Sequence record: PQ303785.1
DNA: 64,000 nt
Reading direction: 5' to 3' (one strand)
Origin: Escherichia phage LYE-01
Made by a program: the position numbers and the translations under genes. The first letter of the stretch is position 1. Each line of letters starts with the position of its first letter. Below are positions 23,385 to 26,054 of this stretch, one piece after another. The notes beneath the pieces were generated by a model. It searched no databases. It had not been told where the DNA came from and saw nothing but the letters and a program-made list of their open reading frames with translations.

Positions 23385-24413
23385 ATGTCATCAATACCTT
23401 GGATTGATAATGAGTTTGCATACCGTGCGCTAGCTCATTTACCTAAATTCACACAAGTAAATAATAGTTCAACTTTTAAATTACGGTTTAGATGCCCTGT
23501 TTGTGGAGATTCAAAAACCGACCAAAATAAAGCCCGTGGATGGTATTATGGCGATAATAATGAAGGAAATATTCATTGTTATAATTGCAACTATCATGCA
23601 CCAATCGGAATATATTTAAAGGAGTTTGAACCCGATTTATATCGTGAGTATATCTTTGAAATAAGAAAAGAAAAAGGTAAAAGTCGTCCAGTAGAAAAAC
23701 CTAAAGAACTTCCTAAACAACCTGAGAAGAAAATAATTAAATCTCTTCCGTCATGTATTAGATTAGATAAACTGGCGGAAGACCATCCAATTATAAAATA
23801 CGTAAAAGCTCGCTGTATTCCAAAGGACAAATGGAAATATCTTTGGTTTACAACCGAATGGCCTAAATTAGTTAATAGCATAGTACCAGGAACATACAAA
23901 AAGGAAATACCTGAGCCTCGTCTTGTTATTCCAATTTATAATGCTAATGGAAAAGCTGAGTCTTTTCAAGGACGTGCATTAAAGAAAGATGCTCCTCAAA
24001 AATATATCACCATCAAAGCTTATCCTGAGGCAACAAAAATCTATGGTGTTGAACGGATTAAAGACGGTGATGTATATGTTCTAGAAGGACCTATAGATTC
24101 GCTTTTTATTGAAAATGGTATAGCTATTACGGGCGGTCAATTAGACCTAGAAATTGTTCCATTTAAAGATAGACGTGTATGGGTTTTAGATAATGAACCT
24201 CGTCACCCTGACACTATTAAACGAATGACTAAATTAGTTGATGCAGGAGAAAGGGTTATGTTTTGGGATAAATCTCCCTGGAAATCAAAAGATGTTAATG
24301 ATATGATTAGAAAGGAAGGTGCAACCCCTGAACAAATTATGGAATATATGAAAAATAATATTGCCCAAGGGCTGATGGCTAAAATGCGGCTATCTAAATA
24401 TGCTAAGATTTAA
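23385..24413 (+). CDS. 61: gp61 DNA primase (342 aa)
   Basis: Begins MSSIPWIDNEFAYRALAHLPKF; Zn-ribbon CPVCGDS...CYNC; 342 aa as T4 gp61. Confidence 0.9.
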   Translation: MSSIPWIDNEFAYRALAHLPKFTQVNNSSTFKLRFRCPVCGDSKTDQNKARGWYYGDNNEGNIHCYNCNYHAPIGIYLKEFEPDLYREYIFEIRKEKGKSRPVEKPKELPKQPEKKIIKSLPSCIRLDKLAEDHPIIKYVKARCIPKDKWKYLWFTTEWPKLVNSIVPGTYKKEIPEPRLVIPIYNANGKAESFQGRALKKDAPQKYITIKAYPEATKIYGVERIKDGDVYVLEGPIDSLFIENGIAITGGQLDLEIVPFKDRRVWVLDNEPRHPDTIKRMTKLVDAGERVMFWDKSPWKSKDVNDMIRKEGATPEQIMEYMKNNIAQGLMAKMRLSKYAKI

Positions 24414-24610
24414 ATTAACCCAACCAAAGCAAATGCTAAATCTACGAATGTATCAAGAGTAATTACTGGAATACTAACGCCATGAGCAATAGCAACTGGC
24501 GATAAAACAAAATTCCAAAGTAAAATTCCTATCATAGCAGAAATAGTAAAAGCTATACGTTTTTTATTACCTTTGATGGCATTAACAAGTGCCATTAATT
24601 TTTGTACCAT
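24410..24610 (-). CDS. hypothetical small two-TM membrane protein (66 aa), antisense to the early block
   Basis: ATG preceded by AGGAGG at 7 nt spacing; two hydrophobic helices; stop overlaps gene 61 stop tail-to-tail. Confidence 0.45.
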   Translation of the reverse strand: MVQKLMALVNAIKGNKKRIAFTISAMIGILLWNFVLSPVAIAHGVSIPVITLDTFVDLAFALVGLI

Positions 24611-24659
24611 GCGTCGTCCTCCTTTAAATTAAATATTTATCGCAAATTTTACAAAATTT

Positions 24660-24689
24660 GTTTACTTTCTCAGCTTGCTGTGGTATTAT
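24660..24689 (+). promoter_or_regulatory. T4-type early promoter (GTTTAC, 18 nt spacer, TG-extended TATTAT) driving ORF 24715
   Basis: TTTGTTTACTTTCTCAGCTTGCTGTGGTATTAT then CTGAGGATAAT SD leader. Confidence 0.55.
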
Positions 24690-24714
24690 AAAATAAACTG
24701 CTGAGGATAATATA

Positions 24715-25275
24715 ATGATTAATAAAATTGTACATGAAATGGCTTTAAACGGAGATTCATATAAAATATCTGCCGTAGTTGAAAATTTCATACTTAATAA
24801 AGTAAAAGAATATTTCACTGATTGTTCAGTTAGTTATCAAGAAAAAATGGTTTTAACCGACGATACTGAAAAATCAAATAATTTGTTTTGTTCGAATTTT
24901 ACCACTAAGAAGCGTACTAGACGGTTTGATATTGTTATTGCTCGTAATGGTAAAAAGCATATAATTGAAATCAAACACCAAGTTGGTGGAGGTACAGCTA
25001 TTGATTCGGTTGGAATATATTTAGAAGATAAAGATAAATTAAAAGAATACACAAAAACTGAAAATCCTGTGTCATTGATGATATTAGATTTTTTGCCATG
25101 CGGATATTATCCGCGTAATAAGTGGACAAAAAGAGAATCATTTACTGATAATCCAACCATCCAAGCAAGGTTTAATGAATATGCTAAATCACAAAACGTG
25201 TTAGTATTACTATCAAATACATATGATGAAGAATTATATAATTCGTTTTTTGCTGCAATAAATGAGAGAATATAA
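24715..25275 (+). CDS. hypothetical protein with PD-(D/E)xK nuclease-like core (186 aa), translationally coupled to dam
   Basis: Candidate catalytic motif [21 protein letters not shown] (D then E-x-K on successive predicted strands); stop overlaps dam ATG (TAATG); own promoter and SD. Confidence 0.5.
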
Positions 25276-26054
25276 TGCTAGGAGCTATTGCGTATACAGG
25301 TAATAAACAATCATTATTACCTGAACTTAAGTCTCACTTTCCAAAATATGACAGATTCGTGGATTTATTTTGCGGAGGTTTATCAGTATCTTTGAATGTC
25401 GATGGTCCTGTATTGGCTAATGATATTCAAGAACCAATTATTGAAATGTATAAACGTCTTATTAGCGTGTCATGGGATGACGTTTTAAAAGTAATAAAGC
25501 AATACAAATTGTCAAAAACATCAAAAGAAGAGTTTTTGAAATTACGTGAAGATTATAATAAAACTAGAGATCCTCTTTTGCTTTATGTTCTTCATTTTCA
25601 TGGGTTTAGTAATATGATTCGCATAAACGACAAAGGAAATTTTACTACTCCATTTGGAAAAAGAACCATAAACAAAAATAGTGAAAAACGTTTTAATCAC
25701 TTTAAACAAAATTGTGATAAAATAATTTTTAGCTCATTGCATTTTAAAGATGTCAAAATTCTAGATGGCGATTTTGTATATGTGGATCCTCCGTATCTTA
25801 TAACAGTTGCTGATTATAATAAATTTTGGTCAGAAGACGAAGAAAAAGACCTTTTAAATCTTTTAGACTCTTTAAATGACAGAGGAATAAAATTTGGACT
25901 GTCGAATGTTTTAGAGCATCACGGAAAGGAAAACACTCTTCTTAAAGAATGGTCTAAAAAATATAATGTTAAGCATCTTAATAAAAAATACGTCTTTAAC
26001 ATATATCATTCCAAAGAAAAGAATGGAACTGACGAAGTATATATTTTTAATTAA
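25275..26054 (+). CDS. dam: Dam DNA adenine (GATC) methyltransferase (259 aa)
   Basis: 259 aa; DPPY catalytic motif and FCGG AdoMet motif; begins [25 protein letters not shown] as T4 Dam. Confidence 0.9.

Follow-up and report, generated by a model that had tools for sequence, protein, structure and literature searches.

Organization of the gene 61-dam interval

The interval between the primase gene 61 and the DNA adenine methyltransferase gene dam was analysed in a 64,000-nucleotide stretch of Escherichia phage LYE-01 (PQ303785.1), referred to as the window, with a focus on ORF186, an open reading frame (ORF) of 186 amino acids (aa) that directly precedes dam and resembles Type II restriction endonucleases. 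The + strand of the window runs in reverse of the T4 map, in the order sp, 61.2, 61.1, gene 61 (23385-24413, +), interval, dam, gene 56. Two oppositely oriented ORFs separated by a spacer of about 100 bp were located here, just as an initial annotation of this DNA had described: dam.1 (24410-24610, -), coding for a small membrane protein of 66 aa, and ORF186 (24715-25275, +), with a divergent spacer of 104 bp between their starts. The interval and its flanks share more than 95% identity with several hundred genomes of Tequatrovirus (T2/T4-type), phage CJY920 being the top match at 98.7%. Allele comparison shows both ORFs to be genuine genes under purifying selection, with ratios of nonsynonymous to synonymous substitution (dN/dS) between alleles of 0.04-0.06 for ORF186 and 0.15-0.18 for dam.1, alongside 0.03 for dam. 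Each corresponds to one PHROG family of unassigned function.

Using the 861-bp gene 61-dam interval as query, a sensitive DNA search returned 506 phage records, only 145 of which hold the interval as a whole; the first ~227 bp, which contain dam.1, are present in 506 of 506. The initial annotation had regarded both genes as one accessory cassette, which holds for ORF186 (~146 of 506 records) and fails for dam.1. Alignment with phage RB27 delimits an accessory cassette of ~1.43 kb (24620-26051), composed of promoter, ORF186 and dam, that is absent as a block from RB27-type phages (RB27, VIPECOOM01), in which the order is 61, dam.1, 56; the start of dam.1 directly adjoins the promoter of gene 56 in RB27. 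By this alignment the variable unit is promoter, ORF186 and dam, with dam.1 excluded, and the interval contains two unrelated things, a core gene and an ORF186-dam operon. The GC content is unusually low in both genes of this operon, at 0.285 in ORF186 and 0.29 in dam, compared to 0.35 in the window. No cassette remnants were found in the 280-bp gap of the cassette-less Dhakavirus NC-G.

A candidate early-type (sigma-70-like) promoter, (G)TTTACT-17 nt-TATTAT with an upstream TG, was located by consensus scan at 24661-24689 (+). Its motifs are conserved in T2, it lies inside a segment that is deleted in T4 (see below), and we infer that it acts as the ORF186-dam promoter. Since the consensus scan yielded no more promoter-like sites than in shuffled sequence, the promoter calls are based on position and conservation only.

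Fold and family of ORF186

Homologues of ORF186 are few. Ten matches were obtained among 5.8 billion proteins, and an exhaustive profile search of 1.8 billion representatives gave 11, two of which (P0016, P0017) were weak matches to long multi-stretch proteins. No recognisable bacterial DpnII-type protein was among these 11, so that a bridge from ORF186 to a characterised enzyme is missing. Judged from these searches, the family is tiny and was seen in T4-like-phage contexts only. The putative catalytic residues E23, D72, E85 and K87 do not vary among nine homologues with identities as low as 29%; the motif HQ..GTAIDS, located after the catalytic strand, is likewise invariant.

From the family alignment, AlphaFold produced a model with a mean predicted local distance difference test score (pLDDT) of 77.5. 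Foldseek searches of PDB and BFVD with this model returned generic PD-(D/E)xK nucleases and the orthologue of Dhakavirus MX01 only, by which the fold class was confirmed; neither database provided a close relative or information on specificity. A sequence search of PDB with the family profile gave E-values above 1 throughout, NCBIfam contained no family relevant to ORF186, and Pfam detected no GIY-YIG or HNH domain in it. The predicted fold and the four invariant residues bear out the PD-(D/E)xK, nuclease-like character proposed in the initial annotation. The model accordingly places ORF186 in the PD-(D/E)xK restriction-endonuclease fold, with a predicted nuclease activity.

By sequence, the closest known family is DpnII, a GATC cutter, at a sub-threshold level. 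Five of seven ORF186 family members match the Pfam DpnII model (PF04556), the window protein with 17.6 bits and the best homologue with 22.5 bits, both below the gathering threshold of 23 bits. ORF186 covers positions 143-233 of the 278 model positions, compared to 1-277 for authentic DpnII, and thus lies outside formal PF04556 membership on score as well as on full length. The PADLOC model for Type II restriction endonucleases matched at 5e-5. For a profile comparison, the DpnII family alignment was rebuilt, starting with a sequence that reaches 336 bits on PF04556 and has 99-100% identity to database DpnII. hhalign then aligned ORF186 with DpnII over 91 columns (E 5e-4, probability 31%, both profiles being shallow), pairing E23/D72/E85/K87 with the invariant DpnII residues E152/D201/E214/N216. 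These matches are suggestive of a DpnII relationship, not proof of it. In GenBank, ORF186 is 'hypothetical' almost everywhere; the record of phage Shinka alone labels it 'putative DpnII restriction endonuclease', and we found it nowhere already annotated with a known function.

Linkage of ORF186 to dam

The gene dam (25275-26054, +) codes for a T2/T4-type GATC N6-adenine methyltransferase (Pfam PF02086, E=1e-50) and shares 95% nucleotide identity with T4 dam. The TAA stop of ORF186 and the ATG of dam have one nucleotide in common (TAATG), an overlap that suggests translational coupling of the two genes. Every ORF186 homologue with readable context is located directly upstream of a D12/Dam methylase gene, at junctions that range from zero-gap adjacency to a 35-nt overlap; the exception is laboratory T2, where a frameshift in ORF186 leaves a 13-nt gap before dam.

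The pair was found at three loci: between genes 61 and 56 in Tequatrovirus, in Dhakavirus MX01 and in metagenomic T4-likes (55-63% identity); between rIIB and a topoisomerase gene in Klebsiella phage KPV15 (43% identity); and directly upstream of rIIA in the sequence L016 (~29% identity). The pairing is also seen in a further sequence, L015. dam.1 does not neighbour the pairs of KPV15 and L016. These contexts support the tie between a nuclease-like gene and a methyltransferase that had been noted for the window. Among the 506 records, ORF186 and dam occur together in ~146 (Tequatrovirus), dam without ORF186 in ~34, and neither gene in ~325; ORF186 without dam was seen in none. Solitary dam genes exist elsewhere too, for example in RB16. 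That the nuclease is never seen in the absence of the methylase, and that the methylase can persist once the nuclease is lost, is the pattern expected of a restriction-modification pair. Because the records are phylogenetically non-independent, conservation at three loci outweighs the haplotype counts, and co-inheritance with Dam at these loci is the strongest evidence for such a pair.

Loss of ORF186 in T4 and its frameshift in laboratory T2

A global alignment with the T4 61-dam gap identified a 549-bp segment (24643-25191) that is deleted in T4. It comprises the ORF186 promoter and codons 1-159, with CAAA microhomology at both junctions, and the last 83 bp of ORF186 are kept in T4 directly upstream of dam. 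By tblastn, 34 T4-type records were found to hold ORF186 residues 159-179 or 159-186 only. The alignment indicates that ORF186 was lost in T4 and not gained in the window lineage relative to T4; what had been taken for a lineage-specific insertion is, with respect to T4, a deletion on the other side. It is also because of this deletion that dam is solitary in T4. The statement that T4 has no comparable genes at this place has to be revised likewise, given an intact, unannotated dam.1 in addition to the ORF186 remnant.

The retained 3' end of ORF186 includes a TATAAT (TGTATAAT in T2 and T4), which probably lets dam be expressed independently; such a promoter would explain how T4 is still able to express dam.

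Laboratory T2 carries a 1-bp deletion in a T-run of ORF186 (L002 3288-3833; approximately window 25252-25275), by which the last seven residues are replaced (conserved C-terminal FFAAINERI to FLLQ) and the product is 181 aa long. The T4 remnant has the same tail as laboratory T2, and a few deletion haplotypes have an unshifted tail. Going by these lesions, laboratory T4 and T2 may both be defective for ORF186. T4 Dam also has four substitutions (D26N, R139Q, F140Y, L209Q) that are private when compared with the window, T2, Lutter and Shinka; at positions 139, 140 and 209, conservation extends as far as Dhakavirus MX01. As a pattern in a single lineage, these substitutions are compatible with an altered constraint after nuclease loss.

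A candidate GATC-type restriction-modification operon

ORF186 and dam combine a nuclease fold with catalytic residues, an adjacent and separate methyltransferase gene, and co-inheritance, which are three features of Type II restriction-modification. On the basis of the fold, the conserved catalytic residues, the purifying selection, the co-inheritance with Dam at three loci and the haplotype pattern, we put an even chance on ORF186-dam being a phage-borne Type II, GATC-type restriction-modification operon, with activity, specificity and target as predictions. ORF186 would then be the endonuclease, presumably a homodimer cutting unmethylated GATC like DpnII and MboI, and its cleavage would be blocked by Dam methylation. 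Dam would be the protecting methylase, translationally coupled to ORF186 and probably served by a promoter of its own in the ORF186 3' end. In the role that we favour, ORF186 would attack Dam-unmethylated non-self DNA in the infected cell, especially the genomes of rival co-infecting phages, and the cassette would be a selfish element acting by exclusion; T4, having lost the endonuclease gene, would have kept the methylase as immunity.

Several points weigh against this assignment. The DpnII match is below the Pfam threshold and confined to the catalytic core, the three most distant family members have no match to PF04556, the hhalign probability is only 31%, the structural matches are to generic PD-(D/E)xK nucleases only, and the haplotype records do not count as independent events. 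Enterobacterial hosts are Dam+, and as host GATC is thus already methylated, an obvious substrate for ORF186 is lacking. Viable T2 dam mutants have reportedly been obtained, a point countered by the frameshift in the ORF186 of laboratory T2. Moreover, DNA with glucosylated hydroxymethylcytosine (glucosyl-hmC) is resistant to 94% of the Type II enzymes that were tested on it, and Dam methylation of T4 DNA is only partial (PMC7653180). If the enzyme is unable to cut phage-type DNA, Dam is unnecessary for self-protection; otherwise, nuclease-bearing phages must methylate more fully.

Part of these difficulties would be removed if ORF186 were a methyl- or hemimethylation-directed GATC nuclease following the logic of DpnI or MutH, which attacks Dam-marked cytosine DNA of the host while phage DNA is shielded by glucosyl-hmC. 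Dam+ hosts offer such an enzyme abundant substrate, the obligatory pairing with Dam is equally expected, and the safety of an only partly methylated phage DNA (PMC7653180) is explained; all the same, we consider it improbable. Of similarly small probability is a free-standing homing endonuclease of the seg/mob kind common in T-even phages, which would cleave alleles without the cassette close to the 61-56 junction, promote its own spread and carry dam along as linked cargo. ORF186 has neither a GIY-YIG nor an HNH domain, a target-site-specific enzyme would need a new specificity at each new locus, and a homing enzyme has no use for the Dam gene that adjoins ORF186 on its downstream side at three unrelated loci and in homologues with as little as 29% identity.

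The short length of ORF186 (186 vs 288 aa in DpnII), which lacks the N-terminal ~120 residues of DpnII, and its repeated loss without obvious harm, by deletion in T4 and by frameshift in laboratory T2, would suit a relic or repurposed restriction-enzyme fold that does not cleave, for example one that regulates dam by binding DNA or serves Dam as a cofactor. To this we assign only a slight chance, given that the catalytic E, D, E and K are invariant, that dN/dS is ~0.05, and that MunI is fully active at a similar size (~200 aa). The initial annotation had likened the divergent pair of membrane-protein and nuclease-like genes to a single module for defence, anti-defence or exclusion, a view that their adjacency across a common 104-bp divergent spacer invites. 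The pairing dissolves on comparison: dam.1 is found on its own, ORF186 being absent, in T4 and in about two thirds of the records, including phages without both ORF186 and dam, the ORF186-dam pair occurs without dam.1 at other loci, and the two signals in the spacer seem to belong to different temporal classes, one early-type and one late-type. We therefore judge a joint module very improbable.

Returning to the restriction-modification operon, a more specific version has wild T-even phages carry an active GATC cassette for phage-against-phage conflict, in which Dam-unmethylated co-infecting rivals are cut and the cassette spreads by marker exclusion and recombination. This we rate as unlikely, though less so than any of the alternatives above. 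Its targets might possibly include even the hmC or glucosyl-hmC DNA of Tequatroviruses without dam, which make up roughly two thirds of the group. If it were true, T-even Dam would gain a reason to exist, the classical laboratory strains would have hidden the cassette through the T4 deletion and the laboratory T2 frameshift, and the cassette could add to the three-fold depletion of GATC. In the window, 67 GATC sites are observed against ~218 expected, an observed/expected ratio of 0.31 that makes GATC the most depleted of the sixteen 4-bp palindromes. As evidence for a nuclease this depletion was rejected, since the ratio is 0.35 in the dam-less RB27 (locus L018), other T4-likes sampled are also low, and the depletion is group-wide. 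Selection through host Dam and MutH has been proposed for enterobacterial phages.

Relation to known systems

As in Type IIP systems of the DpnII/MboI type, the PD-(D/E)xK gene adjoins a gene for a Dam-class GATC methylase (cf. DpnM), and ORF186 shares with DpnII the core motif (K/R)RFD(F/I)VI ... (L/I)IE(V/I)(N/K), followed by a glycine-rich loop. It differs from DpnII in having 186 instead of ~288 aa, in lacking the N-terminal domain, in scoring under the Pfam cutoff, and in being carried by obligately lytic phages with glucosyl-hmC DNA and not by a bacterium, with a specificity that is predicted. From Type IIP enzymes of the MunI/EcoRI class it is set apart by an identity of 10%, and its Foldseek TM-scores to all PDB entries are modest (<=0.46).

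Virus-borne restriction-modification has been characterised experimentally in R.CviAI/M.CviAI of chlorella virus PBCV-1, a GATC system, and in EcoP1I of phage P1. There, too, a virus carries a nuclease together with a protecting methylase, and the nuclease is used against non-self DNA. Unlike in those systems, the T-even genome is additionally hypermodified, and the activity of ORF186 is predicted. Its position as an optional nuclease gene between conserved genes, at a locus that is polymorphic among close relatives, recalls the seg and mob homing genes (segA-G, mobA-E); in contrast to these, its fold is PD-(D/E)xK and not GIY-YIG or HNH, and its linkage to a methylase is obligatory.

Dam of T4 and T2 is a classic model among DNA adenine methyltransferases, yet to our knowledge a clear biological role has not been established for it; as a phage methylase it is usually regarded as a partnerless 'orphan'. 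In contrast to the 'orphan' Dam of T4, dam is preceded by ORF186 in ~146 of the ~180 dam-bearing Tequatrovirus records. Literature searches found no paper describing ORF186 or dam.1 in the library covered. Type II restriction-modification is a well-known kind of system and has virus-borne examples. Apparently new is that the textbook T-even dam normally has an endonuclease-like partner, of which T4 retains a remnant, and that this partner belongs to a compact family absent from Pfam and seen in T4-like-phage contexts only. Should ORF186 be the cognate endonuclease, most natural dam-bearing T-even phages would carry a complete restriction-modification system, the 'orphan' Dam of T4 would be a deletion artefact of one lineage, and a very compact candidate GATC enzyme (186 aa) would be at hand. 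The pair bears on the reason for which a lytic phage with hypermodified DNA retains Dam, and would bear on competition by means of nucleases when phages infect the same cell.

The small membrane-protein gene dam.1

dam.1 is convergent with gene 61, the 3' ends of the two genes overlapping by 4 nt, and matches phrog_2024 (E=2e-30). Hydropathy analysis gave a protein that starts with a basic N-terminus, has a single clear transmembrane segment (about residues 19-43) and is hydrophobic at its C-terminus. The name is taken from the RB27 record, in which the small ORF is called 'dam.1'; all other database entries name it 'hypothetical', except for one with an automated 'holin' label, and no match was found in PADLOC, Pfam or NCBIfam. 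Orthologues are also present in the RB27-type phages, which lack both ORF186 and dam, in Dhakavirus NC-G and MX01, and in divergent metagenomic T4-likes. This distribution marks dam.1 as a core gene of T-even-type phages that is located outside the variable cassette. In T4, the 309-bp dam-61 gap (RefSeq NC_000866 17626-17934; L001 3627-3935; approximately window 24410-24642) is left empty in the annotation. Translation of this gap gave an intact 66-aa dam.1 with a strong Shine-Dalgarno sequence, so the T4 reference annotation is without a conserved small membrane-protein gene.

In the window, a Shine-Dalgarno sequence GGAGG (24622-24618, -) was read 7 nt ahead of the dam.1 ATG; AGGAGG is kept in every orthologue examined but that of NC-G, which has GGAG. 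Further upstream, the octamer GATAAATA (24641-24634, -) has one mismatch to the T4 late-promoter octamer TATAAATA, which is exactly present in the orthologue of the sequence L006, and the annotation of phage Lutter places an 8-bp promoter at the matching position. The octamer suggests that the small membrane protein is expressed late. A terminator-like hairpin, TTGATGGCATTAACAAGTGCCATTAA followed by a T-run (24573-24598, +), was detected by pattern scan downstream of gene 61, antisense in the first codons of dam.1, and is also conserved in T4; gene 61 transcription might terminate here, or the dam.1 mRNA might be affected. In L006, which is a divergent metagenomic T4-like phage, an extra 93-aa ORF (4010-4291), with no Pfam match on record, is inserted between dam.1 and the ORF186 homologue.

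On the other side of gene 61, the 61.1-61.2 region is polymorphic as well (window 22590-23382, RB27 L003 947-1303, T2 L002 1447-1803). RB27 and VIPECOOM01 have an extra ORF of 118 aa between 61.1 and 61.2. The 118-aa ORF is present in T2 without 61.2, and 61.2 is present in the window without the 118-aa ORF.

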